Source: Isurus oxyrinchus
Lineage: Eukaryota
Direction of reading: 5' to 3'
DNA: 64,000 nt
NCBI GenBank assembly: GCA_026770705.1
Contig: JANJGN010000121.1
Location: 1,240,001-1,304,000, forward strand
Shown piece after piece: positions 10,756-50,494 of this stretch. The notes below the pieces were generated by a model that was not told the origin of the DNA, did no database searches, and saw only the letters and a list, made by a program, of their open reading frames with translations. The stretch's first letter is position 1, and each line of letters begins with the position of its first letter. Made by a program: the position numbers and the translations under genes.

Positions 10756-10789
10756 GTGAGTTACACAGAATTCTACATTCTCTTGTTAT

Positions 10790-15375: not shown

Positions 15376-15492
15376 AAGAAAGATGAGAAGGATCTGGAAA
15401 TGAAATCTAACCGCGGAGTCAATCCTGATACAGATGATGATCTTTACGCAAACTGTGAATTTGCCAAGGATTCTGTTTATGGGAATTTATAA
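15376..15492 (+). CDS. Gene A terminal exon (KKDEKDLEMKSNRGVNPDTDDDLYANCEFAKDSVYGNL*)
   Basis: tacag| phase 0; LYAN motif and terminal SVYGNL ITIM; AATAAA at 16267. Confidence 0.75.
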   Translation, partial: KKDEKDLEMKSNRGVNPDTDDDLYANCEFAKDSVYGNL

Positions 15493-16819: not shown

Positions 16820-17345
16820 TGAGAGGAGGACATTCAGCTCCTCGAGCCTGTTACACAGGAACAGGAGGAGGCCCAGTCTGTTCCCTTAAGCCTGTTACAC
16901 AGGAACAGGAGGAGGCCCATTCTGTCCCCTTGAACCTGTTACACAGGAACAGGAGGAGGCCTATTCACCCTCCTCGAGCCTGTTACACAGGAACAGGAGG
17001 AGGCCCATTCACCCTCCTCGAGTCTTTTACAGAGGAACAGGAGGAGGCCCATTCTGTCCCCTTGAACGTGTTACACAGGAACAGGAGGAGGCCCATTCAC
17101 CCTCCTCGAGCCTGTTACACAGGAACAGGAGGAGGCCCATTCTGTCCCCTTGAGCCTGTTACACAGGAACAGGAGGAGGCCCATTCACCCTCCTCGAGCC
17201 TGTTACACAGGAACAGGAGGAGGCCCATTCTGTCCCCTTGAGCCTGTTACACAGGAACAGGAGACCCATTCAGCCTCCACAAGCTTGTTACACAGGAACA
17301 TTAGGGGCTCCATTCAGCCACTCAAGCCTGTTCCACATGAACGGG
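16820..17345. repeat. ~40-bp minisatellite (gagcctgttacacaggaacaggaggaggcccattc...)
   Basis: Tandem units resembling the reversed CR1 3' tail. Confidence 0.9.
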
Positions 17346-17349
17346 AACA

Positions 17350-18180
17350 AAAACAAAAATAGCTGGAAAAACTCAGCAGGTCTGACAGGATCTGTGGAGA
17401 GGAACACACTTGACGTTTTGGGTCTGTATGACTCTTCATCAGAACTAAGGGAATCGAGAAATGAGGTGATGTTTTAGCTGGTAGAGGGGGTGGGGCAGGT
17501 AGAGCTGGATTGTGGGCCAGTGATAGGTGGAGGTAAAGAAGAGGTTGCCAAAGATGTGATAGACAAAAGGACAAAGGGGTGTTGACGGTGGTGATATTAT
17601 CTGAGGAAGGTGCTAATGGGGACATTAAGGGTAGAAAGCAGGACGAGCAAGAGACAGATAGTCCTAGTGGGGGTGGGGTGGGGGGAAAGGATTGAAATAG
17701 GCTAAAAGGTAGAGATACAACAACAGATGTAAAACATTTAAAAATAATGGAAAAATGTGGGAAAAGAAAAATATATAAATAAAAAAAATATTAAAACTGA
17801 TAAATTAATGGAAAAGGGAGATTGGAAAGGGAGTGGGAATGGAGGAGAGAGTTCATGATCTGAAAGTGTTGAACTCAATATTCAGACCGGAAGGCTGTAA
17901 AGTGCCTGGTCGGAAGATGAGGTGTTGTTCCTCCTATTTGTGTTGGGCTTCACTGGAACAATGCAGCAGGCCAAGGACGGACATGTGGGCATGAGAGCAG
18001 GGTGGGGTGTTAAAATGGCAAGCGACAGGGAGGTCTGGGTCATGCTTGTGGACAGACCGAAGGTGTTCATCAGAGCGATCACCCAGTCTGTGTTTGGTCT
18101 GTCCCATGTAGAGGAGACCACATTGGGAGCAGTGAAGGCAGTAGATTAAATTGAGGGAAGTGCAAGTGAAACGCTGCTTC
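17350..18180 (-). mobile_element. Penelope-like element 3' fragment
   Basis: Nearly the same sequence as 43500-44330 (GIY-YIG C-terminus); splits the 40-bp array. Confidence 0.8.
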
Positions 18181-18194
18181 CAATGATGCTCCTA

Positions 18195-18690
18195 ATGTAC
18201 TCGAGCCTGGTACACAGGAACTGGGGAAGGCCAATTCAGCCCCTTTAGCCTTTTACACAGGAACAGGAGGAGGCCCACTCAGCCCCATGAGCCTGGTACA
18301 CAGTGAGAGAAGGAGGCCATTCAGCCCCCATGAGCCTGTTACACAGGAACAGGAGGAGGCCCATTCAGCCCCTCGAGCCTTTTACACAGGAACAGGAGGA
18401 GGCCCATTCAGCCCCTCGAGCCTTTTACACAGGAACAGGAGGAGGCCCATTCAGCCCCTCGAGCCTGTTACACAGAACCAGGAGGAGACCCATTGTGCCC
18501 CATGAGCCTGTTACACAGAAACAGGAGGAGGCCCATTCAGCCCCTCGAGCCTGTTACACAGGAACAGGAGGAGGCCCATTCTGTCCCCTTGAACCTGTTA
18601 CACAGGAACAGGAGTAGGCCCATTCACCCTCCTCGAGCCTGTTACACAGGAACAGGAGGAGGCCCAGTCAACCCCTCGAGCTTGTTGCAT
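18195..18690. repeat. ~40-bp minisatellite, continuation
   Basis: Same unit as 16820-17345. Confidence 0.9.
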
Positions 18691-18724
18691 GTGAACAGTC
18701 AATGGCCCTTCAAAAACATTCTTG

Positions 18725-18955
18725 GCACGCAAAGGGTTAACAGTTTTCTAACAGTGCGAGGCAAAGAGCATCTTTCTCACTTGGTACCAAGCACTTCCTC
18801 ATTTTGTCTCACAGTGACACATCCACCCTTTTTAATTAAACACAAATAGGGAGCAGCACAGGAAGAGGTCATTCAGCCCAAGCAGAGCGTGTGGGCAGTT
18901 CCTCCCCAGGCGAGCAGTCGGACAGGTCCGGGGTAAGTAACGGAATGATTGGAAA
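18725..18955 (+). promoter_or_regulatory. Copy 2 of putative promoter/non-coding first exon
   Basis: ACTTCCTC and CAGGAAG ETS-type sites; donor at 18933. Confidence 0.5.
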
Positions 18956-19369
18956 TCACGGGGGGAGTTCTGAGGGCTCCTAATCCATTGTCCTGTCTTG
19001 TAAATCAGCACCTTAATACTGACCCTTCAACAGTGCAGCACTCCCTCAGTACTGATCCTCCAACATTGCAGCACTCCCTGATTAATGTCCCTCTGACAGT
19101 GCAGCACTCCCTCAGTACTCACCCTCAAACAGTGGAGATCTCCCTCAGTACTGACCTTACAATAGTGCAGTAATGACCATCCGACAGTGCAGCACTCCCT
19201 CAGGACTGACACTGGGCAGTTTCAGTCTACTCTGTGGGGCAGACGTCCCCTGAATGGGGTCTTGAATCCCACAACATTCTGACCCCCTGAATTTGGCTGT
19301 GAAACCCACTGACCCACAGGAGAAACTCCTGGTCAATGACTGTCCACCTGTGAGCAGAAATATCAACAC

Positions 19370-19990
19370 AGGGTCAGGACACAAAGGGTTAACAGTTCAC
19401 CAACATCTCAAAACATGAGCTGGTCTGTCACTTTGATCCAACTTCCTCATTTTGACTCACAGACACACATCAACCCTTTCTCATTAAATACACAGAGGGA
19501 GCAGCACAGGAAGAGGTCATTCAGCCCAAGCAGAGCGTGTGGGCAGTTCCTCCCCAGGCGAGCAGTCGGACAGGTCCTGGGTAAGTAACGGAACGATTGG
19601 AATTCACTTCCACCACCAACACCGTCCTTTGTTGATGTTGTGACTTTATAAAGACAGATTCCAATGACTGATGCCTTTGAAAGATTTCTACTGATTATTG
19701 AGATCTGGGTGTGAGGCTCAAGTCTGTTGTACCGAACATCTTTCTAGTTCAAGGGATGAGGGAAGTGCAGAGACATGAGCTTTGGGATGCCCTGAGGTGG
19801 TGAAAGGTGCTATAGAAATGCAAATCCTTCATTGTTTGTTTTTCTTAAAGCCTTGTAACTCTCTGCTGAGCACCTATCATCCCACAGAGAATCAAATTAG
19901 TCTGTGAAGACATTGTCTAAAAGCAGTTCTGATCTCTCGAGAGCTGTCGGACAAGAGGTGAGGTCTCATTAACTCCTTTCTCTTTCACAG
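19370..19990 (+). promoter_or_regulatory. Copy 3: putative promoter/first exon and intron 1 of gene B
   Basis: PU.1/ETS-like ACTTCCTC at 19441; donor at 19581; leads to the SP exon acceptor at 19990. Confidence 0.6.
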
Positions 19991-20008: not shown

Positions 20009-20069
20009 ATGGAATATCTGGGAGTGGACAATGATCGGGAAATCTACTTCCTCTTGTCACTTCTCCAAG
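20009..20069 (+). pseudogene. Gene B signal-peptide exon
   Basis: Paralogue of 26772-26811. The ATG at 20031 is 1 nt out of frame; the ATG at 20009 gives MEYLGVDNDREIYFLLSLLQG|gtaata. Confidence 0.7.
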
Positions 20070-20772
20070 GTAATATCATCGTCAGCTTGGACAGATTTAT
20101 ATTTAACAGTCTTTGTAAAAGATCATTCTTATCTCTTTATCTCTGTAACCTCCTGCAATGCAACCAATCAACTTCCCAGATCTCTGTGTTACTCCAAATC
20201 TGGCCTCTTGACCATCCCCCAATTCCCATCACTCCAATACTGGCGGCCGTGCCTACAGCTGCCTGGGACCTGAGCTCTGGAATTCACTCCCTAAACCTCG
20301 GCGATGGAGGAGATCAGAGGGTTTCATTTTACTGAGAATCACCACGACCACATCACAGCTGCAGTGAGAATAGACAGAGAGTCCAGCCCTCACACTTCCT
20401 GCACAGTTTCACCATAGCAACCACAATATGGAAATTTAAAAATACTGAAAGTTAAACTGAAGCTCAGCCCATTCAGTGTTGAGAGATGAGATATTTACAC
20501 AGTTTCCCTGTGTATCTTGTAGACACTGTGTTGGATGGAAGACTGGCTTCACTAAACAGGGTCCTGAGGACCATGAGCCAATGTAGAATGAACTTGTCCA
20601 CTCCTGAGTCCAGGATTCTCTTCTATCTGTTGTGAAACCTTGGGGAGTTCCTTGTGTGTCCTGTAGATGGTCCACACTGCAGCCACTGTGCCCCAGTGAT
20701 GGAGGGGGTGGATATCGAGTCTAGTGGATCTACAAACCATCCAGAGTCAAATATTGATATTTCTCTCCCCCG

Positions 20773-21146
20773 TTGGACTGTCACAAGAGTGGAAAGGTGA
20801 CACTCCACGAGAGGTGACAGCACAGGAAGGTTCATGTGTACAGATTCCATGTCATTACAGTTACTTATCAAATTTCGTAGGGAGATCACGTGCAGAATCT
20901 GGTTGAAAGGAATAGATGGGAACCCACAGCCTAAATGGTCTATAGCCTTTCACTCCGAGGGTCACAATCACAGGGATCAAAGATTCCGCCATCGTACCCG
21001 GCTGTCTGGAGACCTGAAAGATGGTGACTGTTCCCTGATTATAAACAACATCAGACGGGAAGATGCAGGACCTTATTTTTTCAGAATAGAGTTTGACAGC
21101 AGGAATAGTTACAGCTACTATCCTGTAACCCAGCTTCACGTTTCTG
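20773..21146 (+). pseudogene. Gene B V-set exon (retains YFFR; frameshifted)
   Basis: Acceptor reads cccccg rather than cccag; length 374 nt, implying a 1-nt deletion near 20895; donor |gtaagt intact. Confidence 0.85.
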
Positions 21147-21669
21147 GTAAGTGCTGTGTTATAATTACTCAACAATTCACAACCAACACTCAATGGGAAA
21201 TAACACAAACTGTGACGTTTACATAATAACACAAAACACAGCTTATTATAACACACTGTCTGATTCTCAATAACCTGGTGATAGCTTCCAGTTCAGTCCT
21301 AAAGCAACCTCTAAAAATCACTTTAATATCAATGATGAAAAGCATTAACTGTACCGACATCTTTCATTCTACATCAGCACTCCCTCAGCGCTGACCCTCT
21401 GACAGTGCAGCCCGTTCTCAGTATCCACATTCTCAGGCCACTCAAAGTGCTTCACAGTCGATAGAAGTTAATTGATCTTTATTTGATTATTGCTGAATGA
21501 AGAGACAAGCTGTCTAAACTTCTCATATCGCAAACAGCATTCTCCACGGCAACACCTCCACCTATCAGAGACCACTTGCCAACCAATCAGCACTGTCTTT
21601 CCATTAAGTATAAATTGTTGTTCACTTTCTGTTGGTAATCGTGCGAACGGGGTTCTTGATTCCTGCCAT

Positions 21670-21822
21670 GACATCTGAATGTCCAAATGAACAGAAGAAG
21701 TTCCAACAATGAGCTGTGGTTGCTGATTCCTCACGTTACATCCAGGGACACTGGAGACTATCAGTGTGTGGCAGAGAATGAACATGGAGCAGTGGAGGGG
21801 TTCATAACCATTACTGTGGAAT
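21670..21822 (+). pseudogene. Gene B 5'-truncated copy of the 282-nt C2 exon
   Basis: Only HLNVQMNRRSSNNELW...TVE|gtgagt remains; the 5' half is replaced by unrelated sequence 21487-21669. Confidence 0.8.
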
Positions 21823-23485
21823 GTGAGTGTACACAGACTTCAACATCTCTCTCAGATTCGAATACTACACAAACACCCTCAAACGTACAGACCTAAATAG
21901 ACACGTGCAGACACACATATATGACCACACACAAAGACACACTCACAAACAAACACACTAGCACAAGACTCCCTCATGGGTTATCTGACCTCCCTCAGTA
22001 CTGCACTGGAGCGTGGGCTGAATTCTGGGATTTGTGTTCCCATTCATATTTATGGAAGAATATGGAAATTACTCGTACAAACACTCAGATGCATAGAGGC
22101 ACTCATAGATACTCTCTGCTTCTCCAACTCTCTCTCTCCCTTTAAGGAGCTACCTGAAACCTAACCCTTTGACGAATAACTAGTCCCAACTCCTCTTTAT
22201 CTGATTCTGTGATTTTTTTGTGAATCTGAGAGTAAGAGAGAGGTGGAGAGGTTTAGTAAGAGAATTCCTGCTGATGAAAAGCTTACATCCTGTTCTCACT
22301 ATTTCCGTGCCCATTATGTCCAAAGCCCCTGTTTATAGTGATGACTGCCTATGTAAACGTCACACTGTAGTTACAGCCTCCCACCAGTGGTGGCATTGTA
22401 GCACTTAATCCTTGTGTTTCCCAGCTTTTCAAGCAAATCTACTTCCCAGTTTGCTACACAAGCTGGGAGTTCATCGGAATTCAATTATTTCTCAAACGGT
22501 AGATTTGATAATTCATTTTATTGAAAACTTCCTCAGCACCTCCCTGAAGTGTTTACACTCTCCGGGAAGCAGGAATAGGCTGGATGTTGGGGAGTTCATC
22601 TTTTCCTTGAGAGTAGTGATCCTCGGGAATGTGCTGTCAGTGGGTGTGGTCGTTCCTGTTTCTCTGTCGCCTTCAAGAGGGATCTGGAGTGGTTACTGAC
22701 TGGGGGAGAGATCATGGAAGCAGAGAATGATACAGCACAGGAGGAGGCCATTCAGCCCATTGTGCCTGTGCCAGGTCTTTCAATGTTCTATCCAATCAGA
22801 TCCACTAACCACCACTCCACTTTGCCCCCACCTTCTTCCTTCAAGTGTTTATCCAATTCCCCTTTTGAAAGTTCCTATTGAATCTGCTTCCACCGCCCTT
22901 TCAGGCAGCACCTTCCAGATCACAACAACTCGCTCTGTCAAAACAAATTCTCCTCATCTCCCCCTCCGGTTCGTCAATCTGTGCCCCTCTGGTTACCGAC
23001 CCTCCTGCCCCTTAAATACATCGATACTGTTCACCTCAACCACTCCCTGTGGGAGTGAGTTCCACATTCTCCCCTCTCTCTGGGTAAAGATTGGAACTGT
23101 TTATTTAGCGGGGTGTGTAAGTCCGTGGGGGAGTCCATCTCGATCCTGCCCGATTCGCACACGCATCCGAGATGGATTTCCACCCTGCACTAAACATTTC
23201 CAGAATTTTCTACAGCACAATCCTGTACACAGCGATGGAGAGAAACATTGGACAGGGAGTCCAACAGCACAATGATCCATTCTCACCAATGTTCCACGCT
23301 AAGGGGAAAGTTCCGATTGTCCACTCTTGGAGTGTTTACAATGAAAACATTCATTCCACATTGAATCCCAGTGGATGGGTCAATATTACAGCAAATGTTG
23401 CAGTGTTATGAAGCTTGATTGTTCAGCCAGAGTGAGAGATTGAAAGTGGAGAGTCAGTGATGATTTCTTTCTGTGTGTTCTCTAG

Positions 23486-25960: not shown

Positions 25961-26179
25961 ATAACAGGGATCGTTGAAATGTATCATAAGGCCAGAGACC
26001 TATATTAGGAACTCTTATCGCCTGAGTTTCAGCCTCCGAGGTGAGGGGGAGGAGTCTAAACCCACGGAGCCAATGGAGAAGCTTCATGACTACAGCTGCC
26101 CAAATTTGAGCTGACAGATCATCACATGGTAAACGTTTTGCTGAGAGCACAAAACATCCTCGATCTTCTCACTGGTTAC

Positions 26180-26730
26180 CCACTTCCTCATTTTGTCTCA
26201 CAGTGACACATCAACCCTTTCTAATTAAACATACAGAGGGGGCAGCACAGGAAGAGGTCATTCAGCCCAAGCAGAGCATGTGGGCAGTTCCTCCCCAGAC
26301 GAGCAGTCGGACAGGTCCTGGGTAAGTAACGGAATGATTGGAATTCACTTCCACCACCAACACCGTCCTTTGTTGATGTTGTGACTTTATGAAGACAGAT
26401 TCCAATGATTGATGCCTTTGAAAGATTTCTACTGATTATTGAGATCTGGGTGTGAGACTCAAGTCTGTTGTACAGAACATCTTTCTAGCTCAAGGGATGA
26501 GGGAAGTGCAGAGACATGAGCTTTGGGACGTCTTGAGGTGGTGAAAGGTGCTATAGAAATGCAAATCCTTCAATGTTTTTCTTTCTTAAAGCCTTGTAAC
26601 TCTCTGCAGAGCACCTATCATCCCACAGAGAATCAAATTAGTCTGTCAAGACATTGTCCAAAAGCAGTTCTGATCTCTTGAGAGCTGTCGGACAAGAGGT
26701 GAGGTCTCATTAACTCCTTTCTCTTTCAGA
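26180..26730 (+). promoter_or_regulatory. Copy 4: putative promoter/first exon and intron 1 of gene C
   Basis: ACTTCCTC at ~26182; donor at 26322; directly upstream of the SP exon. Confidence 0.6.
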
Positions 26731-26771
26731 GTTTGAGAGTCAGAAGCTTATGAAATATCTGGGAGTGGACA

Positions 26772-26811
26772 ATGATCGGGAAATCCTACTTCCTCCTGTC
26801 ACTTCTCCAAG
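26772..26811 (+). CDS. Gene C signal-peptide exon (MIGKSYFLLSLLQ)
   Basis: ATG at 26772; phase-1 donor CAAG|gtaata. Confidence 0.8.
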
Positions 26812-28499
26812 GTAATAACATCATCAGCTCGGACAGGTTTATGGCTAATAGTCTTTGTAAAAGATCATTCTTATTGAGTGTGATTGGGAACCGATTCAGC
26901 AGTGATCCAGTGTACAAACTGACACCAAGTCCCATTCACCCATCACCCCTGTGCTCACTGATATACACTGACTCCCTGTCTGACAGCAGAATTGGAGGAG
27001 AGCAGAGATCTCAGAGGGTTTTAGGGTTGGAGGAGGTTACAGGGATTGGGAGTGTAGAGGGGGGATGGTGGGGTAAGAAATCGATGATGAGAATTTGAAA
27101 TTTGAGTCATTGCTGGACTGGGAGGCAGTGTAGTTCATCCAGTGACAGGGGAGCGATCGGCTGAATAGAGAATCAGGGATACCAACTGGGGGATGAAGTC
27201 TATCCTGATGCTGGGACTCGGATAACAATGCCCTGAAATTTTGTGTCTATTGCTGATTTTAGTCAGAATTTCCCATGAAGACAACACAGCAGCTCCTAGA
27301 ATAGACAGGCTGTTCAGTGTCACACTTACTGTCCATTCTCACCATGCTAGATACTTCAATAAGGGAGCAAGATAACTGAAAGAGAGAAGGAAGGTAAAGC
27401 TGTCTGTGTGTAAAGGTGTCAAATATTCTGAGTTATCATGATTGTCTCTGATCTGCTGCAGTGTTTAAAGTTCTCAGAACATTAGCACTTTGCAGCTCAG
27501 AGAGAGACCATTGACTCACTGCTTGAAAGGCTGGTGGCAGCAGATTCAACAGGAACTTTCAGAAGGGGAACTAGATAAATACTTGAAGGGGACATTTTGC
27601 AGGGCTGTGGAGGAGAGAGCAGAGGTTAGAGTGGGACTAATTGGACAGATCTTTCAAAGGCCCAGCACAGGCTCGATGGGCCAAATGGCATCCTTCTATT
27701 CCGGATCATTCTACAATCTGATAAATTAAGACCCACTCTTCAGTAACTCTTCAGGCTCCTGCTGCAGGGATGGATCTTTGAGAAGGACAGGGAACAAGAG
27801 GTTCCTGGTATCATTTTCATATTTCTTGACAATTACATAAGTGTATAGATCTGTTGAATATTTGAGTCTCTAAAGCGTAGAGGTAATCTGCTGTTATGTC
27901 GAGATCTTGTGGTGGCAAAATTGTCTGGAGGTTTCTTTAATTGCTCACATTGATCTGTGGGATTGTCATTCTTTGATGTTGTCCCTGGTTTCAATTGACA
28001 TTACACCCTTGATGCAATTGAGAAGGCTTTAAAGTAATATAGCAGGGGATGGGATCCCGAGAGGAAGTTCAACAGAGAGAGATGCACAGCCAAAATTAGA
28101 AGAGAGCAAATGAACCTGGAAGGCATAGAAATTATTGGCCATTTAAGGCTCAAGATAGCGTGGCAAAGTTGGATTGTATTAATTTTAATGCAAGGAGTCT
28201 GACAGACTTGCATTCTCCTGCAGGTGTAATGTTGCAGCTCCCATGAAACTGCCAATATTGTTGAATCTTTCTGCATATTTCAATGTTATGTCATGAACTG
28301 AGTTTATGGGATAGTTTCTGAGACTGGGACAGACATAAATCCATTGGCTTTCAGCCGGACCAGACAATCTTGGAAGTGGGTGGGGCCAGAAAATCCCACC
28401 CCTATGGGAACATTTTCAGTTTATTTGATGTGCCCAGAGAGATCAATAAAGACCACAATCCACAATTTATTGGCAAGCCACGTCAGGATATGTGTGAGA

Positions 28500-30175
28500 G
28501 GTGGAATATCGATCACCGCTCCTAGTCTCGTCGTGTACATCATCGCCAATTCCTGGTTTGTCAGTCACCACATGTATATGTTCCTGATGGGATAGCGGAT
28601 GGTCATCCTTATTGCTTGAAGTTTCCCCGTTGTGCAGGGATTGTTTGGATCAGCGCACGGCTCTTTGTAGCTGCATCAGCCTTTGCTCTAGTGCCCTGCC
28701 ACTGTCAATGGCCCTTTCTGCCACAAGCCTTGATGGATTGGTGGAAAGCTGGGCATTTCCTTGGTGCCTGCAGAAGGCCACACCTTCCACAAGTCTCACT
28801 AGGTTTGGATGTTCTAGTGAGTGTGTCAACAATTGATGTTGTATTGAGGACCTGTAAGCTTGTTGACCTGCGAGGATCACTTCATATTTATGTCCATCCT
28901 TGAGTAGCTCTTCAATGCTATAGGTTTTGGTCTTATCTAGCAGATCTTTCTGGAAGGCTTCCATGGGAGTGGATGTGATCACCAACTCAAAAACTCTGTC
29001 TGCAGACTCTGTGTTTGAAATCACAGTGCGTACCCTTTTCTCTACATCGGCTGATGAAGTGGTCTATGGATTGTGTAGGCTGATGAAATGACATAAACTC
29101 TAGTTGATGAATATGGAGTTTAACCTGATTCTGAACCTGTCTTCCAATATCGTCCATATCTATTGGGGATCCTTTCGCTCTTCTGCTGTTAATCCTGACG
29201 TGTTCAGCCTGTGTAGACCTTCATTCCCAATCGCGAGGTGAATTTTTATGGCTTGTTCGTCTGGTTCAGTCACACCTGAATCAGGAAACCAGAGCTCTGT
29301 ACGCTGTTTAAACATTCTGAATTCAGATAGTCGGTCAGCTACATCCCAGTTCAAACTGGGGAATTTAGTGGACATTCTGACAATATTCCTTTGACCTTCC
29401 TTCTCCTACAGGATCTGGGATGAGTGTCGCTTTAGCCCCTTTCGTGCGCTTTTCCGAAGCTCCGCCCACGAAGACGGGTTGTGGCAGGAACACACCACGG
29501 AGTAATGGAGTCTTTGTTTTTTATTCAATTTGCTGTTCAGCAATCTCGAAGCCGCCCGTTATAATCACTAACTTCTCTGGGCTGATTTTTATAATGGTTT
29601 TTGTGTGTTTGACTCTCCCTCGCTCACTATCGATCCAGCCCACACCCTGGTCACTCGCCTTCCCTGACTGAGCTAACCTGCTGCTGGTCCTGGCGATACA
29701 CACTGTCCCACTCATTGACCTACAGGCCGTGTGCTGTAATCCCACCACGAGGGATCCGTCTGCTCCCCAGCTCTTTACTTGAGCTCTTTCCCGTCACTGT
29801 GTCTTCAAAGGTTTCCTGAGCAGTCAGTACACTGCGATTTCAACCCTCTCTGATGCTGTGTCTCTGTTGTGGTCTGACCAAAGCATCGAGGATCGTCTCA
29901 TGTCACGTAGCTCGATCTAAGGCTGTTCACCACGTCATATCTGTACTGAATCTTGCTGCCTGAATGTTTGGCCACCACCGATCACCATGTTGTGTTTTTA
30001 TAATGATATAAAGGCACCAGCCACTGATACGGAATTGGGTAAACACATTGTGGGTTCATTTATTTGGAATAGGGACATGAGAACAGATATACAAGGATAG
30101 AAAGCTGGGAGACACCTGCAGCCAAACTGTGTGAGCTGTGTTCTGCTCACAGGCCAAAGTGAGACTTGGACTGGA
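28500..30175 (-). mobile_element. Degenerate Gypsy-like LTR retroelement (gag, PBS, LTR part)
   Basis: FPSLNW...EFRMFKQRTELWF...AIGNEGL gag-like frame; ...aaca|tggtgatc LTR/PBS junction at ~29990 on the minus strand. Confidence 0.65.
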
Positions 30176-30178
30176 TGG

Positions 30179-31880
30179 TGTTACCATCCCAGCTGTCGTT
30201 ACTACTGGGCAAGTCAGATCCCAGGGTGGAACTCAGCTTGATAGGTCCTAACTTTTATTTTTTATTTAGGAATGTGGAGTGCGGCTACTGAACAGAGTCA
30301 CAGGAGTCATCTGATGAACTTCTAACAAAAGAATAAAACATTTATTAAACTAGGAAAGACAAACTATATGACATTACTCATTCACCCAGATCTATACCTT
30401 TACAGATTCATAAGTAGAACACAAGTTACGATATCTATCTTATACTCTCTTGTTCACACTAAGTACACAGTCGATGTAAACCAATAGACGACCTGTGGTC
30501 AGGGACACCACATTCTGAAAGCAAGTGGCAGAGCCCACTTGAAACAAATTCTATGTCTCATCTGTCCCCAGACGCTTGTTGCACTGTGAGCCAACCAGTC
30601 TCACTGAAAAGCTTCTTTCTTATGAGGGTTTCCAATCTCCACTCTCCAAGAACTCACTTTGGAATCTTCTCCAACATGACACTTTCACTCAGACACCTTC
30701 CACAAGGGACCACTTTCACTATTTCAAACTCTCCTTCCCATGTTCCTGTCCCCTGGATCGCCACGTGCATTCAGCCTTCCTTCCACGCCCTGTCTCTCCA
30801 ATGCTCAGCCGTGTCAATGGAACACCATGGCTTCACATGGCCGTAGTAATGAGTCACCAACCTGTGGTGTCTCCTAGGATCTTCTGGCTTCTCGCAAGCC
30901 TATTTTGCTTTAGGCCTGTGTCCTGCTGCTTTCTCCCTTTATGCTTGAAGCCTTCTTCTGCTCCTCACTCTTAACTTCACTTTACAGGGCCTTTTCCAGA
31001 TTTGACTAGAAGGTCTTCTTGGGCCCTTTCTCCTGTCAAACTCGATAGATTTGGCTTCTTCTTTACTTTGGGACTGACTATCTGTCCCGCTCCTTTGCTG
31101 CTTCTCCTGGCAACTCCTTTCAACAGAACTGAAAGTACTTTTCTGTTTTTTTCTGTCTCTGTGGGTCCTTCCCTCTGGATCACTGTTACTAGGCAACAGC
31201 ATAGTTTCTTACACCTTGTATTTGTTTTGACTTCCCTTCAACAGTCATAAAACCTCAATGGAATGCTGGCTTCTTTTTAACTCAGGTTCCCCCTTTTCTC
31301 AACACCCAAATACAGAAATACAAACTAAACTTGAACTTAAAGATAGACCTTTTGCCTAACGCACACAAATACACATAGAACTTACTTAAGCGAACACCAG
31401 TTCCTAAAAATCACATGACACACTTCCTCTCGAGTGATGTCATGCTGCTGTCCCTGAAAGGCATATTACAAAAGTGTTATCACTTGGCAGGTGATGTGTG
31501 CCAGGCAGACCAAGTCCCTGAGAGAAACCTGGTCACACTATCATAATGATTTTGCAATTTGTATTTATTATGAGATGTGTGCACTTAATTCAGAAGCAAT
31601 AACTCCACCAATACCGTCTGAGATTTAAAACAATAAATTAACATATTTGTCATCAAAATAAAGGATTTCAAGCACATAAATAACTACAAGACTGCTATCA
31701 TAACTCCTAAAATTCCTAATTAACCTGACTCCCAGTTACAGTCCCTTTAAGGCAACAGACCAAAAATAGATGTTAGATTTAAAACAAAATCAGCAAGTTA
31801 ACCCAATGCCCCGGACAGTGGAATTCCAAATGCATTGTCCCCAACTTCAGTTCTGTTGGAGAGCAGGCTTGTGCACAAAC
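30179..31880. mobile_element. Nested LTR-like relics
   Basis: TGTTA starts at 30179 and 31475; 31500-31700 resembles the reverse of the LTR end at 51560-51746. Confidence 0.45.
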
Positions 31881-32095
31881 AGGGTCCTGAGGACCATGAA
31901 CCAATGTAGAATGAACTTTTCCGCTTTTGTGTCCAGGATTCTCTTCCATCTGGTGTGATACCTTGTGGAGTTCATTGTGTGTCCTGTAGATGCTCCACAC
32001 TGCAGCCACTGTGCCCCAGTGATGGAGGGGGTGGATATTGAGTCTAGTGGATCAACAAAACATCCAGAGTTAAATATTGATATTTCTCTCCCCAG

Positions 32096-32473
32096 TTGGA
32101 TTGTCACAAGAGTGGAAAGGTGACACTCCACGAGAGGTGACAGCGCAGGAAGGTTCGTGTGTACAGATTCCATGTCATTACAGTTATCCATCAGATTTGG
32201 TAAAGAAACCCCAGGTCGGAATCTGGAAAATGAGAAGATACATACAGAACAAATGGTCTAAATGGTCTATAGCCTTTCACTCCAAGGGTCACAGTCGCGA
32301 GTTATCACAGTTCCACCATCGGACCCGGCTGTCTGGAGACCTGAAAGATGGCGACTGTTCCCTGATTATAAACAACATCAGACGGGAAGATGCAGGATCT
32401 TATTTTTTCACGATAAAATTTGGCAATGGTCCGAGACATAACGTTTCCCCTGAAACCCAGCTTCACGTTTCTG
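32096..32473 (+). CDS. Gene C V-set exon 1 (YFFT, no essential Arg)
   Basis: cccag|(V)GLSQEW...CVQIPC...GDCSL...DAGSYFFTIKF...LHVS|gtaagt; 378 nt, open. Confidence 0.9.
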
Positions 32474-32689
32474 GTAAGTGCTGTGTTATAATTACTCACC
32501 AATTCACATCCAACACTCAATGGGAAATAATAGTGTTTGATTTGCTTGTTTTTTGGCCGTGTTAACCAGCGTCACTATTTTTAATGATTTGTCTATTTCT
32601 GCTCCCAGATCCATGAGCTTATTGTGTGTGATTGAATCCACATCATAGCTGTAACGTAAACCGAGCTGAGGGGTGATGACACCTCCCCC

Positions 32690-33700
32690 CTGAGTGAAGT
32701 GTCTCCTCCCCACTACACCTTCCACCCCTCACACTGTCCGTGTAAACCCCCGTCCCATCTCCAGCCTCTCTTTCCCCTCCAAAGTCCTTGAACGTGTTTC
32801 CATCTCCCGAATCCGGTTCCATCTTTCCCGGAACTCCATGTTTGAATCCCTCCAATCAGGTTCCCACCCCAGCCACTGTGCTGAAACAGCTCCTATCAAG
32901 GTCACAAATGGCATCCTGTGTGACTGTGACAAAGGTCAACTTTCCCTCCTCGTCCTTCTCGATCTGTCTGCAGCCTTTGACACGCTCGACCACACCATCC
33001 TCCTCCAACCCCTCTCCACTGTCGTCCAGCTGGGTGGGACTGCTCTCCCCTGGCTCCATTCTTATCCATCTCATCGTAGCCAGAGAATCACTTGCAATGG
33101 CTTTGCAGCATCATCTGAACAGTATTAGTTTTCACCTGTCCACTGAGGATCCCCAGCTCTACCTCACCACCACCTCTCTCGACTCCTCCACTGCTGCTAA
33201 ATTATCAGGCTGCTTATCCGACATCCAGTACTGGATGGGCAGAAATTCCCTCCAATTAAATATTGGAAAGACTGAAGCCATTGTCTTCATTCCTCGATCC
33301 AAACTCTGTTCCCTCGCTACCAACTCCATTCCTCTCCCTGGCAGCTCTCTGAGATTGAAGCCAATCTGTTCACAGCTTTGTTGTCCCATTTGATCCTGAG
33401 ATGAGCTTCCGGCCTCATATCTGCGCCCTCACTAACACTGTCTATTTCCACCTCCATAACGTCGTACGACTTCACCCTGTCTCAGCTCATCTGCTGCTGA
33501 AACCCTCATCCACGCCTTCATTACCTCCAGACTCGACTGTTCCAACACATGCTCTACACTCCATAAACTTGAGGCCATCCAAAACTGCTGACCACGTCCT
33601 TACTCACACCAAGTCCCGTTCCCTTATCACCCGCTCTGCTCGATGACCGAGACTGGCTCCTGGTCAAGCAAAGTCTCAATGTCCAAATTTTTGAATATTT
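32690..33700 (+). mobile_element. L2-clade LINE RT fragment
   Basis: LLVLLDLSAAFDTLDH, DPQLY, LQLNIGKTE. Confidence 0.85.
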
Positions 33701-33759
33701 TTCCTCCCTATTACAGTAATCTCCTCCTTTATCTTCATCCACGGCAACATTCCCTATCG

Positions 33760-34702
33760 CAGGAGCCTCCTCCAGTCCCTACAACCCTCTCTATCTCAGG
33801 AGCCTCCTCCAGTCCCTACAACCCTCCCTATCTCAGGAGCCTCCTCCAGTCCCTACAACCCTCCCTATCTCAGGAGACTCCTCCAGTCCCTACAACCCTC
33901 CTATCTCAGTACTCTCTTCCAATCCCGAAAACCATTCCTATCACTGCAAACTCCTCCGGACCCAACACCCCTCCCTATCTCTTTAACCTCCTCAAGCCCC
34001 GATAACCCTCGCGATATTTGTAGCCTCCTCCAGTCCTAACAACCTCCACTATCTCTGCAAACTCCTCCAGACCGAATACCTCTCCCTATCTCTGTAAGCT
34101 GGTCCATCTCTTACAACCCTTCATATTTCTGTAACCTCCTCCAGCCCACTACAACCCTCCCTATCTCTGTAACCTCCTCCAGTCCCTAAGAGTTTCCTTC
34201 ATCTCTGTAACTCCTCCAGCCATTATAACCCTCCCTATCTCTGTAGCCTCCCTCAGCCCCAGCCACACTCCATATCTATGTAACCTCGTCCTGCCCCTAC
34301 AACCCTCCCTATCTCTGTAACCCCATCCTGCCCCAAAAACTCCCCCATCTCTGTAAACTCCTCCAGTCCCTGCAACCTTCCCTACCTCTGAAACCTCCAC
34401 CAGCCTTTCCAACCCTCCCTACCTCTGCAATCCGTCCAGCCCCTACAACTCTTCCTATCCCTGTAAACTCCTCCTGCCCCTAAAACCCTCTCTGCCCTTG
34501 CAGCCTCCTCCAGTCCCTACACGTTCCCCATCTCCATAAACTCCTCAAATCCCTATAGCCCTCCCTATCTCTGCAACCTCCTCCAGGTCCTACCACCCTC
34601 CCTATCTGCGTAATGTCCTCCAGTATCTACAGCCCTCCCTATCTCTGTTACCTCCTCCAGCCCCCACAAACCTCCCTATCTGTGTAACCTCCTCCAGCCC
34701 CA
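33760..34702 (+). repeat. ~34-bp minisatellite (ctccctatctctgtaacctcctccagccctacaac)
   Basis: Degenerate tandem units expanded from the L2 3' region. Confidence 0.85.
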
Positions 34703-34779
34703 GATGGAAGGTGGGTCGAGCGGGTCAGTCACTTGCATGTTTATTCTGCAGCTTTAATATTTTAAGAAGGTAAGAATGT

Positions 34780-35610
34780 AGGAACATAAGAAATAGGGAC
34801 AGGATCAGGCCATTCGGCCCCTCGAGCCTGCTCTCACTGATCTGGTTGTGGCCTTAACTCCATTTTCCTGCCTGTCCCCCAAACCCTTGACTCCCTTGTC
34901 GATCAAAAACCTGCCTCACTCAGCCTTGAGTCTATTCAATGGCCCAGCCTCCACTGCTCTCTGGGGAAGAGAATTCCACAGGCTAGCGCCCCTCTGAGAG
35001 AGGAAATTCCTCCTCATCTCAGTCTTAGATGGGAGAGCCCTCATTCCGAAACTGTGCTCCCTGGTTCTAGATTCCCCCACGAGGGGGAAACATCCTCCCA
35101 GCATCCACCCTGTCAAGCCCCCTCGGAATCGGATATGTTTCAATAAGGTCACCCCTCATTCTTCTAAACTCCAATGGATACAGGCCCAACCTGCTCAACA
35201 TTTCCTCACAGGACAAACCCTTTAATCCCAGGAATCAGCCCAGTGAACCTCCTCTGAACTGCCTCCAAAGCAACTCTATCCCTCCCTAAGTAAGGAGACC
35301 AGAACTGTACACACTGCTCCTGATACAATCTCACCAACGCCCTGTGCAGCTGCTGCAAGACTTCCCTCCTTTTATACCCCATCCCTTTGCAATAAAGGCC
35401 AACATTCCACTTGCCTTCCTCATTCCGTGGTGTTCCTGAATGCTGACTTTCTGTGATTCATGTACAAGGACACCCAGATCCCTCTGTACTGCATTCTGCA
35501 GCCTGTCTCCATTTAAATAATATCCTGTTTTTCTATTCTTCCTGCCAAAATAATTTGTTGCCATTCTCCTCAGTATTGACCATCCCCCCAATTCAGCCTC
35601 ATCTGTAAAT
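34780..35610 (-). mobile_element. CR1-like LINE 3' fragment
   Basis: Very similar to 1085-1560; QRDLGVLVH motif. Confidence 0.85.
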
Positions 35611-35669
35611 TTTGAGTCTAGTGGATCCACAAACCATCCAGAGTTAAATATTGAGATTTCTCTCCCCAG

Positions 35670-36038
35670 ATAAACCCTCACAAGAGTGGAAAGGTGACAG
35701 TCCACGAGAGGTGACAGCACAGGAAGGTTCGTGTGTACAGATTCCATGTCATTACAGTTATCCATTGTGTCCGGAAAACCAACCGCGAGGTGGAGTCTGG
35801 TTTAATAATGAGAAACAGATTCCCTGGGCTCCCATTGCCTTTCACTCCAAGGATCACAGTCACGAGTTACCACGGTTCCACCATCGGACCCGGCTGTCTG
35901 GAGACCTGAAAGATGGCGACTGTTCCCTGATTATAAACAACATCAGACGGGAAGATGCAGGAACTTATATTTTCAGAATAGAATTTGACAATGGTCCGGG
36001 CCATAACTATTACCCTGTAACCCAGCTTCACGTTTCTG
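35670..36038 (+). CDS. Gene C V-set exon 2 (YIFR, Arg retained)
   Basis: cccag|(D)KPSQEW...CVQIPCHYSYPLC...DAGTYIFRIEF...LHVS|gtaagt; 369 nt, open. Confidence 0.9.
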
Positions 36039-36314
36039 GTAAGTGCTGTGTTATAATTACTCAACAATTCACATTCAACACTCAATGGGAAATAACACAA
36101 ACTGTGACGTTTACATATTAACACAAAACACAGCTAATTATAACACACTGTCTGGTTCTCAATAACCTGGTGATAGCTTCCAGTTCAGTCCTAAAACAAC
36201 CTCTAATACTCACTTTAATATCAGTGATTAAATGTATTGACTGTGTCCATCAATGTTATCAGGTTATCCACTTACATCAATCTCCCTAATCCTGTTTAAA
36301 ATTCTTACATATCA

Positions 36315-36500
36315 ACAAAAGAAAGATTTGCATTTCTATAGCGCCTTTCACCACCTCTGGACGTCGCAAATGGATTCACAACCATTGAAATAATTCTTGA
36401 AATGTAGCCCTTGTTGTAATATGGGAAACACAGCAGCCAATTTGTGCACAGGAAGCTCCCAGAAACAGCAATGTGATCAATAACCTGATCATCTGCTTTA
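36315..36500 (-). mobile_element. Deu-domain-like SINE fragment
   Basis: rc of gggagctt.ctgtgcacaaattggctgctg.gtttcc. Confidence 0.6.
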
Positions 36501-36845
36501 AATGCCGGTTCAGTGATTGGTTCAAATGGATTCTCTCCTGCTGGGAACAGGATAGAATTTAAATCTGGCAGATTTCGGAGAAAGTAACAAGCCAGTGTGT
36601 CAGGAACTGTGAGCTGATCCCCCACCCTCACCCGTCAATTCAATTGTCTCAAAGTGGAAGTGAATTCATCTGAGTGACTGAAACTCCACTAAGTCTGAAA
36701 ATAGGAAAGTCTCTCCTGATCGTTGTAATCTCTCAGTTCTGATATCATCCTTGTAAAAGTGCTTTTTCTTGTGGGACTGTGATTTCTATTTGAACTGATG
36801 CTTCACGTTATATTTCTCTAAAAGGATCCATTCTCTGTCTGTTAG

Positions 36846-37142
36846 ATTTCACAGATAAACCCATGATATTCCCTGCTGAAATTATTGCAGGGAAGCGTGT
36901 GGATGTAAGCTGCACCTTCAACACAACGTGCAATGGAACAGCAGCACCTGTCTTAACCTGGGACACTCCCACTGATGTACCTGGATCAGTCTCAAACACT
37001 GTAACTCAGCATGGTGTCACTCTGACCTATACTTCTGTTCTGACCCTGATCCCATCACTCAAACACCACGGACACACTCTCAGCTGCAGAGTGAGATATC
37101 CATCTGTTTCATCGGAGCGGACCCTTGTACTAACTGTACAAG
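36846..37142 (+). CDS. Gene C Siglec C2-set exon (DFTDKP...CTFNTTC...SVLTLIPSLKHHGHTLSC)
   Basis: Typical Siglec domain 2 with the extra B-C loop Cys; GT-AG, phase 1-1. Confidence 0.9.
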
Positions 37143-37519
37143 GTAAGTACTGACACCCTTGATTCTATATTAGCTGTAATAGGATACAATGTGCAGAGCA
37201 AGATCCCACAAACATCACTGGGTTGAAGACAAAACAGGTCCTTTTTTATTAGTGATATTGACCAGGGAGAGCTCTTCCTGTATTGAGCCTTGGGATTGTT
37301 TATGCCTACCTGATAGGGCAGAGGGGGCCAAGGTTGAACTTAAAAGACAATATAGGATAATATAAATATTGTCTTCATTGATGTCAAAGATTTTGGGGGA
37401 GATGTAGTATAAAAGTTTAATATTAACAATGTAAATAGATAGTATTTATCATCAGTTACTCAAGGTCACATGAGAATAGAACACGGAGAGAGATAGTTCT
37501 ATAGATACCTAGGTACATA

Positions 37520-39560
37520 GAAACTAGGAGCAGGATTAGGACATTCAGCCCTTCAAGCCTTCTCCGCCATTCAATATGATCAAGGCTGACCCTCTATCTC
37601 AAAGCCTTATTCCCGCTTTCTCTCCGTACCCTTTGATGCCCCTAATATCAAAATATTTATCAGTTTCTTTCTTGAATACACTCAGTGACCCGGCCTCCAC
37701 AGCCTCTGTGATGGAGAATTCCACAGATTGACCACCCTCTGAGTGAAGAAATGTTTCCCTATCTCAGTCCAAAATGGCCTGCCCTGTATCCTGAGATTGT
37801 CGCCCTTGGTTTTAGACTCCCCAACCAGGGGATGCATCCTCCCTCCATCCAGTCTGTCTATCTCTGTTAGAATTTCTTACGTTTATTCAGGTCTCCTCTC
37901 ATTCTTCTAAACTCTAGTGAATACAGACCCAGTCGTACCAATTCTCCTCATACGACAGTCCTGCCGCCCCTGGTATCAGCCTAGAGAACCTTCTCTGCGC
38001 TCTCTCGACGGCAAGTCTATCCTTTTTTAGGGAGGGAGACCAAAACGGCACGTAGTACCCCATGTGCAGTCTCACCAAGACCTTGTATAACTGCAGTAAG
38101 ACATCCCTACTCCTGAACACAAATCCTCTTGCAATGAAGGCCAACATACCATTTGCCTTCCGAATTACTTGCTGCACCTGCCTGTTTACTTTCATTGGCT
38201 AGTGCACAAGGACACCCAGATCCCTTTGTACATCCACATTTCCCATTATATCACCATTTAAATAATACTCTGCCTTTCTGTTTTTCACACCAAAGCCTAC
38301 AATGTCACATTCATCCACATCATCTGCCATGTGTTTGCCCACACGCACAACATGTCTAAATCGCCTTGAAGTCTCTTTGCATCCTCCTCACAGCTCACAC
38401 CCTTACCCAGCGTTGTGTCATCAGAAAACCTGGAAATATTGCACTTGGCTCCCTCACCCAAGTCATTTAAATATATCGTGAATAGTTAGGTCCCAAGCAC
38501 GGATCCCTGTGGTACACCACTAGTCACTGCCTGCCACTCAGATAAAGACTAATTTATTCTGACCCTCTGTTTCCTGTCTGTTGACCAATTCTCAATCCAT
38601 GCCAGTAAATTACCCCCAATCCCATGGGCTTTAATGTTGCCCACTAGCCTCTTATATGGGACCTTATCAAAAGCCTTCTTGAAATCTAAAAACACCACAT
38701 CCACTGGTTATCCCTTATCTATTCCACAAGTTACATCCTCAAAATCTCCAGTAGATTAGTTAAGCATGGTTTTCCTTTCATTAACCCATGCTGACTTTGT
38801 CTAATCCCATTAATGCTTTCCAAGCGTTCCGTTAGCACACCTTATATAATAGGCTCTAGCGTTTTCCCCATGTTAGACTAACTGGTCTGTAATTCTCTGA
38901 TTTTTCTCTCCCTTCTATTTTAAATAGTGGAGTTACAATTGCCACCCTCCAATCTATAGGAACTGCTCCAGAGCCTATAGAATTTTGGAGGATGACCACC
39001 AGTGCTTCCAATATTTCCAGGGTCACTTCCGTTAGTCTCTGGGATGTAGATTTTCAGGCCCTGGGGACTGTTCAACCTTTAACCCATTAATTTCTCCAGC
39101 TCCATTTTTTAAAACTAATCCTGATTATCTTCAATTCCTCCCTCTCACTAGACACTTGGTTCCCTAACATTCCTGGGAAATTATTTGTGTCCTCTTTTGT
39201 GAAGACAGAACCAAAATATATGTTCAGTTCTTCTGCCATTTCTTTGTTTCTCATTAGAATTTCCCCCATTTCTGACTGCAAGGAACCTACATCGGTCACT
39301 GCTAATCTTTCTCTCTTCACATATTTATAGAAGCTTTTACAGTCGGTTTTTACGTTCCCTGCAAGTTTACTCCCATGTTCCATTTTCCCCTTCTTGATCA
39401 ATCTTTTTGTCCACTTTTGCTGAATTCTAAACTGCTCCCAATCCTCAGCATTGCTGCTTCCCCTGGCAATTTTATGTCTCCTCTCTGGATCTAATACTAT
39501 CCCTAATTTCTTTTGTAAGCCCTGGTTGAGCACCATTTCCTGACTTATTTTTACGCCAGA
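37520..39560 (-). mobile_element. Degenerate CR1-like LINE
   Basis: KSFYKYVKR...AEELN.YF.SVFTKED; KANGMLAFIARG. Confidence 0.88.
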
Positions 39561-39699
39561 CAGAAATGGATAATTGTTGTAGCAAATGCTTCAGCCTTAT
39601 CTTTTGCCCTGATGTGCTGGGCTCCCCGTTCATTGAGGATGGGGATATTTGTGGATTCCCCTCCTCCAGTGAGCTAATTGTCCGTTACCATTGGATACG

Positions 39700-40780
39700 A
39701 GCATTAGTGGACTGTGTTAGACCATTATCGAAAATGAAAGCCGGACTCCAGTATGGCCTCACTATGATGGATATGACAACTCGATTTCCAGAGACCATCC
39801 CTTTAGGAACAATTACAGCTAAAGTAGTAATAGGGAAGTTAACCCAATTTTTTACCCATTATGGATTACCGCTGGAGATCCAGTCAGATCAAGGTTCCAT
39901 CTCTATGTCTTAAAATTTTCCGAACATAATGAGTAATTTGGGTATAAAACAGTTAAAGTCCACAGCATATCATCCATAGACACGGGGATCTTTAGAGAGG
40001 GACCAACAAACCCTCAAAACAATGATTGAAGCTATTGTCATGAACTCCCCATGACTGGGACAAAGGACTGGATTTTCTTGCATTTCCCACACGAGATTCA
40101 CCAACTGAATCGGCAGGTTTTAGTCTTTTTGGAATAACTTATGGACACGAGATAAGAGGCTGTCTGAAATTCATCAAAGAAAGATATTCCGGACAGAGGG
40201 ATGAATCCTCTATTTCAGATGATGTGTCCATGTTTCAGGAACGGCTCATAGGAGCCTCCAAAGTGGCACAAGAACATCTTATAGTTTCTCAAACAGAGAT
40301 GAAGGAATGGGGTAGACAGGCAAGCTGTGACCCGAACATCTCAACCAGGGGGATGACGTGTTAGTATCATTGCCTTGGCAGGGGGAGCCTCTGAAAGCGC
40401 GGTTCAGTGGTCCCCACAAGGTAATTAGGAGGGTTGGTCAAGTAAATTATTTGATACACACCCCAGATTGTAGAATAAAGAATCGGCTGTGACACATCAA
40501 TATGTTAAAACGATACCATCGTAGGGAGGGAGGTAAAAAGGAGCAGGTATTTCATTTCCAACCAGATTCTGCATACATTACAGAAAGGTTAATGCAGCAA
40601 TAAAACCAGATTCCTACCCAATCCCCCGTTTAGAAGATGGTATTGACGGGGTTGGCAGTGCCATGTTCCTTACTGAGATAAATTTGTTGGCAGTGGGGGG
40701 TGTTCGTGACCATCAGTGTGGAAGGGTTAGGTTTACAGGTTACACAGACCACACACGCACCAACAGACACACACACACAT
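39700..40780 (+). mobile_element. Gypsy integrase fragment, PPT and start of the 3' LTR
   Basis: DCV.PL...MDMTTRFPE.IPL...FTHYGLPLEIQSDQGS; gtgggggg|tgttcg at 40701. Confidence 0.85.
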
Positions 40781-41667: not shown

Positions 41668-41949
41668 ATGCTCCACAGAATCTCTCATTTACTTCTCTTG
41701 ATATGATTAACGCTTCATCGGTCAATATAATTGAGGGGAATTCTGCAGTGATAATCTGCTCTGTCGAGAGCTTCCCAGCTTCTAACCTGACGTGGCGACA
41801 TCTTAATGTCCCAATGAACAGAACAAGTTCCAACAATGAGCTGTGGTTGGTGATTCCTCACGTTACATCCAGGGACACTGGAGACTATCTGTGTGTGGCA
41901 GAGAATGAACATGGAGCAGTGGAGGGGTTCATAACCATCACTGTGGAAC
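41668..41949 (+). CDS. Gene C repeated C2 exon (282 nt)
   Basis: cttag| ... |gtga; near-identical to 10474-10755. Confidence 0.9.
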
Positions 41950-42873: not shown

Positions 42874-43155
42874 ATGCACCACGGAACCCATCAATTACTT
42901 CTCTTGATATGATTAACGCTTCATCGATCAACATAATTGAGCGGAATTCTGCAGTGATAATCTGCTCTGTCGAGAGCTTCCCAGCTTCTAACCTGACGTG
43001 GCGACATCTTAATGTCCCAATGAACAGAACAAGTTCCAACAATGAGCTGTGGTTGGTGATTCCTCACGTTACATCCAGGGACACTGGAGACTATCAGTGT
43101 GTGGCAGAGAATGAACATGGAGCAGTGGAGGGGTTCATAACCATCACTGTGGAAT
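42874..43155 (+). CDS. Gene C repeated C2 exon (282 nt)
   Basis: tttag| ... |gtgagt. Confidence 0.9.
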
Positions 43156-45271: not shown

Positions 45272-45547
45272 ATCCCCCACAGGAGACGATGGTGTCCATC
45301 AGCAGATCCTCAGGTGGGATAAGAGAGGGAAGCAATGTCACATTAACCTGCTCCAGTGAAAGTGTCCCACCGATATCTCATTACACCTGGTTCAGGATCG
45401 AGGGGAACACCAGCACCCAGTTAAACACAAGTAGCCGCACTCTCTCCTTCACTCCTGTAACACGGGAGAATGATGCAGGTTTCTACTGCACAGCGAGGAA
45501 CCCAGTGGGTAACAGCACCTCCAACATCACCCACCTGAACGTACAAT
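45272..45547 (+). CDS. Gene C CD22-like C2 exon
   Basis: ccag|(Y)PPQET...IREGSNVTLTCSSESVPPISHYTWF...DAGFYCTARNPVG|gtaagc. Confidence 0.9.
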
Positions 45548-46318: not shown

Positions 46319-46612
46319 ATAAGCTGGAGATTTCCCAGCAGTCGGAGTGCACTCAGAGGTCAGAGGGGGTCACCTGTGTCTGTGTGGCCACCTCCAACCC
46401 AGCCGGAGACCTCACCTGGCACCTGCCCAGTGCCAACATCAGTGGTAACCAAACACACGGAAGTTTTGTGTCGTGGCAGGTCAGAGATGGGCATCTGGTG
46501 ACTGGTTCCCTCACCCTGATGAGACCCCAGGATGAGGGGGGAGTGATGGCATCCTGCTCGGTTCAAAACCCACACGGGGAAGCCATGTTCAAGGTTTATC
46601 TGTGGGTCAAAG
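46319..46612 (+). CDS. Gene C membrane-proximal Ig exon (MAG domain-5-like)
   Basis: SEC...VTCVCVATSNP...LTW...SLTL...CSVQNPHG; CxC motif as in MAG d5 (QCLCVVKSNP); |gtgaga. Confidence 0.88.
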
Positions 46613-47753: not shown

Positions 47754-47850
47754 GTAGAGACTCCAGTAAATGGACAGTAGGATTGTTCACGGCTGGGATC
47801 ATGTTGAGTGTTTTCCTGGCTGGAATCTTCATCTTCATCTGTGTGAGAAA
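47754..47850 (+). CDS. Gene C transmembrane exon (GRDSSKWTVGLFTAGIMLSVFLAGIFIFICVRK)
   Basis: tacag| ... |gtaagt; uncharged TM. Confidence 0.88.
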
Positions 47851-50245: not shown

Positions 50246-50494
50246 GGTAAACAGAACGTGCTGATTACTGAGCCCCGGGAAACAACCAGAGACACAACTA
50301 GCGAGGGGGAGACCCCAGCTCCCCGGGGTCTCTCTGAAGGTCCAGTAGGAGGCGATGTTGGACATGGGAACCCCGACAATACCGCCGACCTTCTCTACGC
50401 CAACATCAACTTTTCAAAGCTGCCCGGCGGTGACAGGACTGTGCACAGGAGCGAGGACACGGAATATGCACAGATCAGGTTCCAGAAAAACTGA
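50246..50494 (+). CDS. Gene C terminal exon with ITIM (LLYANI) and ITSM (TEYAQI)
   Basis: tgtag| phase 0, open to TGA at 50492-50494. Confidence 0.9.
   Translation, partial: GKQNVLITEPRETTRDTTSEGETPAPRGLSEGPVGGDVGHGNPDNTADLLYANINFSKLPGGDRTVHRSEDTEYAQIRFQKN

Follow-up and report, generated by a model that had tools for sequence, protein, structure and literature searches.

A B–C loop cysteine marks internal V-set exons in a Siglec-like receptor family of sharks and rays and may link successive V domains

Introduction

Known Siglecs have a single V domain, at the N terminus, and it is locked to a C2 domain. The inter-domain disulfide has been solved in MAG (C37–C165; accessible part of PMC5150538), and the Siglec-6 substitutions C46A and C172A lose glycolipid binding (accessible part of PMC10122656). 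Human Siglec-12 (Siglec-XII) has two V-set domains, and its essential Arg is mutated (R122C; accessible part of PMC6288428). In the accessible part of PMC8455134, Siglecs are mentioned once. A search of literature available without subscription returned no description of an elasmobranch tandem-V Siglec family or of the cysteine discussed here.

The shark gene described below shares three features with the D1–D2 disulfide of Siglecs (MAG C37–C165, Siglec-6 C46–C172, and the structures of CD33, Siglec-5 and Siglec-10): the same donor Cys within CxxIPC, a putative acceptor in the B–C loop of the next domain at a nearly equal distance to the C-strand Trp, and a similar predicted domain orientation for shark V–V pairs. 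It differs in that the acceptor domain is V-set rather than C2-set, with the Cys at +7 rather than +6 from the B-strand Cys. Because the acceptor is V-set, such a link could repeat along the chain, and genes in this shark genome have up to 10 V exons.

Gene organization

The window (the whole stretch analysed here, 64,000 nucleotides of Isurus oxyrinchus contig JANJGN010000121.1, positions 1,240,001 to 1,304,000 of the forward strand) holds a gene whose exons (a leader, the V exons V1 and V2, five of C2 type, one for the transmembrane segment and two for the tail) splice on paper into one open frame of 881 residues:

26772..26811, + strand: leader exon in phase 1 (13 codons and one further base); assigned by homology, with a GT..AG joint to a V1-type exon in contigs of runs X1, X4 and X6
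32096..32473, + strand: V1 exon, N-terminal V-set, with Asp at +7 and Thr (32410–32412) at the position of the Siglec F-strand Arg
32158..32160, + strand: spare Cys of V1 (residue 35), the first in CVQIPC and the proposed partner of the V2 loop Cys; read from the sequence, role by analogy with MAG C37 (accessible part of PMC5150538)
35670..36038, + strand: V2 exon, internal V-set, with the F-strand Arg kept (35975–35977)
35732..35734, + strand: V2 spare Cys (TGT), first Cys of CVQIPC, residue 161, expected to pair with the C2a loop Cys; the V2–C2 of a relative superposes on D1–D2 of MAG and CD33
35768..35770, + strand: V2 B–C loop Cys at +7, residue 173; sequence and positional counts
36846..37142, + strand: C2a exon; its loop Cys is at the canonical +6 (36929–36931, residue 291), and contigs of runs X1, X2 and X6 have a V-to-C2a joint
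41668..41949, + strand: C2-type Ig exon
42874..43155, + strand: C2-type Ig exon
45272..45547, + strand: C2-type Ig exon
46319..46612, + strand: membrane-proximal Ig exon
47754..47850, + strand: transmembrane exon, a hydrophobic stretch free of charged residues
48568..48649, + strand: first cytoplasmic exon, boundaries being the best-looking of several open options
50246..50494, + strand: last exon, with LLYANI, TEYAQI and the stop codon

We take LLYANI to be an ITIM-type and TEYAQI an ITSM-type motif. The leader, which a hydrophobicity search had missed, was located by homology; this single leader lies upstream of V1 and none lies between V1 and V2. Both V exons are bounded by AG..GT in phase 1-1, and the V2 exon opens with D-K-P-S in place of the signal-peptide tail V-G-L-S.

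Contig runs that we guess to be RNA matched positions 26100–40700 (X1, X2, X4, X6), and the 15 joints listed out of 471 included leader-to-V and V-to-C2a joints and no V-to-V joint. Searched alone, the V2 exon matched X1, X6, X7 and X18 (a likely-DNA run), with two joints, neither of them V-to-V, among the matches listed; contig loose ends at this exon were of the leader-to-V and V-to-C2a kinds (10 further are unlisted). Since the contigs are short and mix paralogues, the absence of V-to-V joints is uninformative. Two protein searches centred on the V–V junction returned only database gene models and no transcript-derived sequence, and in-frame joining of one V exon to the next is present in models of ten genera. 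We infer from exon order, reading frame and these models that V1 and V2 would be spliced into one polypeptide.

Other parts of the window hold relatives of this gene. A broken copy at 20009–21850 consists of a leader and V exon, frameshifted, and half a C2 exon, the C2a exon being missing; similarly broken copies were seen again in other genome blocks that we read. At 1604–12119, a divergent V exon that lacks the Arg and has two C2 exons of its own is followed by C2 and transmembrane exons of the main family, and this may be a chimeric gene; in proteins P0015 and P0033 the main family is preceded by related V–C2–C2 units. A short segment present in several copies (about 12870–19580, and 26235–26321) is an exon in database models and may be a 5' untranslated exon, since 26321 is connected to the leader region in one RNA contig.

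Relationship to Siglecs

V1 and V2 both match Pfam V-set and Ig_CD22 above cut-off, and the best PDB matches of V2 are Siglec-5, Siglec-7, CD33, Siglec-8, sialoadhesin and MAG. The cysteines of V1 (35, 40 and 101) form the Siglec-type set of a B–E pair plus a spare Cys before strand B, while the first C2 domain matches C2-set_2 and its cysteines (285, 291 and 343) align with those of CD33, including the extra B–C loop Cys. The transmembrane exon, the two tail motifs and the open 881-residue frame describe a type I membrane protein with an ITIM/ITSM tail. The essential F-strand Arg is missing from the N-terminal V domain, where V1 has Thr (32410–32412), and is retained in V2; family-wide, it is kept in 16/17 intact single, 9/17 first-of-several and 40/41 internal V exons. 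We therefore call the gene Siglec-like, as Siglec-XII is, because V1 lacks the essential Arg that most of the family has. It is likely an inhibitory-type Siglec-like receptor with two successive V domains of predicted sugar-binding type.

The closest database relatives of V2 are elasmobranch, with identities of up to 94% in lamniform sharks. Shark and ray gene models named Siglec-12, Siglec-13, CD33-like or MAG-like belong to the same family (48–94% identity to V2, with the same leader and C2 exons); these names are automatic, and "Siglec-12" is a best-hit label. First V exons are more diverse than internal ones (mean nucleotide identity of 87% versus 96%).

Cysteine pairing in V1, V2 and C2a

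The earlier note on this DNA had reported a B–C loop cysteine in V2, and it is present in this intact 881-residue gene: V2 reads PCHYSYPLC, with the loop Cys (TGT 35768–35770, residue 173) at +7 from the B-strand Cys (TGT 35747–35749, residue 166). The C2a exon that follows reads CTFNTTC, with its loop Cys at +6. V1, V2 and C2a together hold ten cysteines (35, 40 and 101; 161, 166, 173 and 224; 285, 291 and 343). Ordinary Siglec pairing (40–101, 166–224, 285–343 and 161–291) leaves exactly residues 35 and 173 over, so that all ten are paired only if residue 173 takes residue 35. By analogy with C37–C165 of MAG (accessible part of PMC5150538), a 35–173 bond is likely. We consider it probable that residue 35 of V1 bonds loop residue 173 of V2 and, more generally, that the spare Cys of each V domain bonds the loop Cys of the next V; the spare Cys of V2 (161) would in turn bond the C2a loop Cys (291). 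The canonical Siglec lock would thus be reused between V domains.

V2 has an even number of cysteines (four), as would be expected if residue 173 instead paired inside V2 as an extra loop disulfide. We regard this as very improbable: residues 166 and 224 match the Siglec B–E pair, spare Cys 161 is expected to bond residue 291, and an internal bond would leave residues 35 and 291 free. In the Ig fold, moreover, the spare Cys 161 and the loop Cys 173 lie at opposite ends of V2.

Position of the cysteine within the genome

V2 had been singled out as the only one of four V exons with this cysteine. That stands inside the window, where the +7 residue is D in V1 (32194–32196), N in the frameshifted V copy near 20770 and H in the divergent V near 1604, but fails genome-wide, where 249 of 564 V-motif matches carry it (a count that, like that of the 427 leader-motif matches, includes pseudogenes and possibly assembly duplicates). 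The expansion of the family is very large, extending over G000 contigs C52, C71, C121, C150, C189 and others in both orientations and with many near-identical copies.

We read 1.264 Mb in five blocks and obtained 93 V matches, of which 88 were classed by position; two went unscored (a first-of-several exon without the Cys and a 44-base fragment) and three with unknown upstream context were left out. The +7 Cys was found in 42/43 internal, 0/19 first-of-several and 5/26 single V exons, that is, in 42 of the 43 V exons that follow another V versus 5 of the 45 others. The cysteine tracks internal V position across the family, beyond chance. Leader-anchored genes had one V exon (26 genes), two (13), three (4), seven (1, at C189:689.5–705 kb) or ten (1). 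At G000:C52:2280276-2299968 (L059-L060), one leader is followed by ten V exons, nine of which bear the Cys and one of which starts with a frame or splice defect.

The start of the exon is a second mark of internal position. The GLS signal-peptide tail gives way to an E/K/Q-P-S-type start (EPS, KPS or QPS) in 32/43 internal exons, and in no N-terminal exon among those for which we read the start; in V2 it occupies window positions 35670–35679.

The five single-V genes with the +7 Cys have first-type upstream introns and represent about three events, a pattern consistent with gene conversion. Four of them have an intact V exon with the tip Cys and no V upstream (G000:C121:1058154, C52:539060, C71:364773 and C71:420945) and may carry a free thiol or form disulfide-linked dimers. 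Such leader–V–C2 genes, in which the Cys sits on an N-terminal V that has no upstream partner, are also what would be expected if V exons were alternative or often skipped and the tip Cys linked two receptor chains or another protein; in addition, the frame survives skipping, since every V exon is phase 1-1. This reading is unlikely, however, given that the Cys is absent from first-of-several V exons in this genome (0/19) and in public proteins (0/23), that most internal exons have lost the signal-peptide tail, that the database models of ten genera connect one V in frame to the next, and that the exceptions reduce to so few events.

Position of the cysteine in other sharks and rays

Our public set drew on 101 proteins of sharks and rays, which gave 129 distinct V domains with duplicates removed and 11 domains that had no readable motif left out. 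The +7 Cys was present in 34/45 internal, 0/23 first and 1/61 single V domains (N-terminal total 1/84), and the lone single-V case, P0032, starts like an internal exon and has no leader. The expectation that the Cys would accompany second-position V exons in other sharks therefore largely holds, and the cysteine is uncommon in single-V paralogues both here and in the I. oxyrinchus genome. By group, the counts for the +7 Cys were:

Lamniforms: internal 11/15, N-terminal 1/11
Scyliorhinus: internal 10/12, N-terminal 0/18
Mustelus: internal 7/8, N-terminal 0/9
Carpet sharks: internal 3/3, N-terminal 0/17
Sawshark and sevengill: internal 1/1, N-terminal 0/12
Rays: internal 2/6, N-terminal 0/15

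Enrichment in internal V domains is thus seen in all six groups that have any. With lineages treated as strata, no column of the V domain is as closely linked to position as +7 Cys (statistic 67.3; next column 29.9); the residue at +7 varies over nine different residues among N-terminal V domains and is mostly Cys in internal ones. The donor (spare) Cys is kept in all 23 first and all 45 internal public V domains. Internal V domains that lack the +7 Cys (11/45, including 4/6 in rays) show that a V–V lock is not obligatory.

The earlier note had described the Cys as gained by V2, which is not borne out: internal V domains carry it in each of the six groups in which such domains occur, pointing to an old or repeatedly spread trait rather than a gain in V2.

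Tandem V domains outside sharks and rays

A library-wide search gave 134 further matches, among them 17 proteins with Siglec-type V domains directly in tandem. The eight that we could name are from bony vertebrates (lynx, tree shrew, two frogs, two turtles and two teleosts) and are 32–39% identical to V2. Siglec-12 and the other bony-vertebrate tandem-V proteins resemble the shark gene in their tandem array of at least two Siglec-type V domains, and Siglec-12 also in that the first V can lose its Arg (R122C in human, Thr in V1 here, and no Arg in 8/17 intact first-of-several V exons). They differ in the loop: at none of the 18 V–V junctions in the 17 proteins, Tupaia "Siglec-12" (P0164) included, does the second V carry a Cys between +5 and +8. 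We infer that the tandem V domains of these proteins probably had a separate origin.

A Cys at +4 of the inner V occurs in the Siglec-like V–C2–V proteins of Scleropages and Arapaima (P0128 and P0131) and in the V–V protein P0133; a few single shark V domains have a +4 Cys as well.

Relatedness of the V exons

Most internal V exons in this genome form one young clade, and their counts are not independent. Fisher p-values (2.5e-18 and 3e-23) were accordingly rejected as evidence, since V copies are kin. Independent-pair comparisons gave 1.6 same and 0 opposite in this genome (2 pairs, p 0.5) and 2.5 same, 0 opposite and 3.5 showing no difference among public proteins (6 pairs, p 0.25); they never opposed the reading by position and were never significant.

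These features of the data could also mean that the Cys is a passenger with a single origin, in an ancestral second V exon, and that it has since marked that lineage through linkage to its upstream intron, with neither a bond nor selection; the absence of the Cys from the Siglec-like tandem-V proteins found in mammals, frogs, turtles and teleosts fits such a history too. We judge it quite unlikely. Cys-bearing internal V domains fall into several lineage-specific clades, some of them beside the first V of the same genus, and seven N-terminal V exons that are 96–98% identical to an internal Cys-bearing exon nevertheless lack the Cys, two observations that together oppose pure hitch-hiking. No other column is nearly as position-linked across lineages, and a residue so variable in N-terminal V domains is mostly Cys in internal ones. 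From the sequences, the +7 Cys appears to be a mark of internal V exons that is old or has spread repeatedly, and gene conversion would have spread and occasionally misplaced it. The further proposal that the V–V architecture is selected overreaches, given the 11 of 45 public internal V domains and 18 of 18 distant tandem junctions that lack the Cys and the non-significant tests corrected for relatedness.

Predicted orientation of tandem V domains

The C-strand Trp follows the +7 Cys by 10 residues in 35/35 Cys-bearing V domains, and follows the acceptor of C2 domains by 9 or 10. We modelled a natural shark V–V protein, P0017, with AlphaFold2 (pTM 0.43; domains mostly at pLDDT 75–92, linker below 50). 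With both domains aligned, its V–V pair superposed on D1–D2 of Siglec-10 at 3.8 A over 208 residues, of MAG at 4.9 A over 206, of Siglec-5 at 5.3 A over 201 and of CD33 at 5.4 A over 207, versus 8.4–17 A for other two-Ig chains (JAML, CAR, PD-L1 and antibody). The true V–C2 pair of P0012 gave 3.5–5.0 A against the same Siglec structures, V1 of the P0017 model matched sialoadhesin at 1.8 A, and Foldseek confirmed the Siglec fold of a three-domain model. A complex prediction with V1 and V2 as separate chains (score 0.00) was set aside.

V1 and V2 are thus predicted to stack in the orientation of Siglec D1–D2, on the superposition of a low-pTM model that gives no Cys–Cys distance, and this orientation is compatible with a 35–173 bond. 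The modelled geometry of this relative resembles that of disulfide-linked Siglec domains, in line with the idea, put forward in the earlier note, of V1 locked onto V2; the orientation may mirror learned Siglec geometry, since the model set had no Cys-free V–V control.

Implications

In the arrangement that we propose, every V domain would have a donor Cys at its base and internal V domains also an acceptor Cys at the tip, so that V exons could be added in tandem and stay locked. The D1–D2 lock affects ligand binding in Siglec-6 (accessible part of PMC10122656). A V-to-V lock, if true, would be a lineage-specific way of rigidly chaining lectin domains, one that the bony-vertebrate tandem-V matches do not show.

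The +7 Cys also provides a single-residue marker of internal V exons in an elasmobranch receptor family that is very large and apparently undescribed: this assembly alone has no fewer than 564 matches to the V motif and 427 to the leader motif (more than 400 leader exons). We tentatively suggest, as a possibility rather than an expectation, that sharks and rays possess a self-stacking Siglec module, in which disulfide-stapled rods of 2–10 V domains may bind sialic acid multivalently through inner V domains that keep the Arg (40/41), while the fast-changing outer V (Arg lost in 8/17) may sample other ligands.
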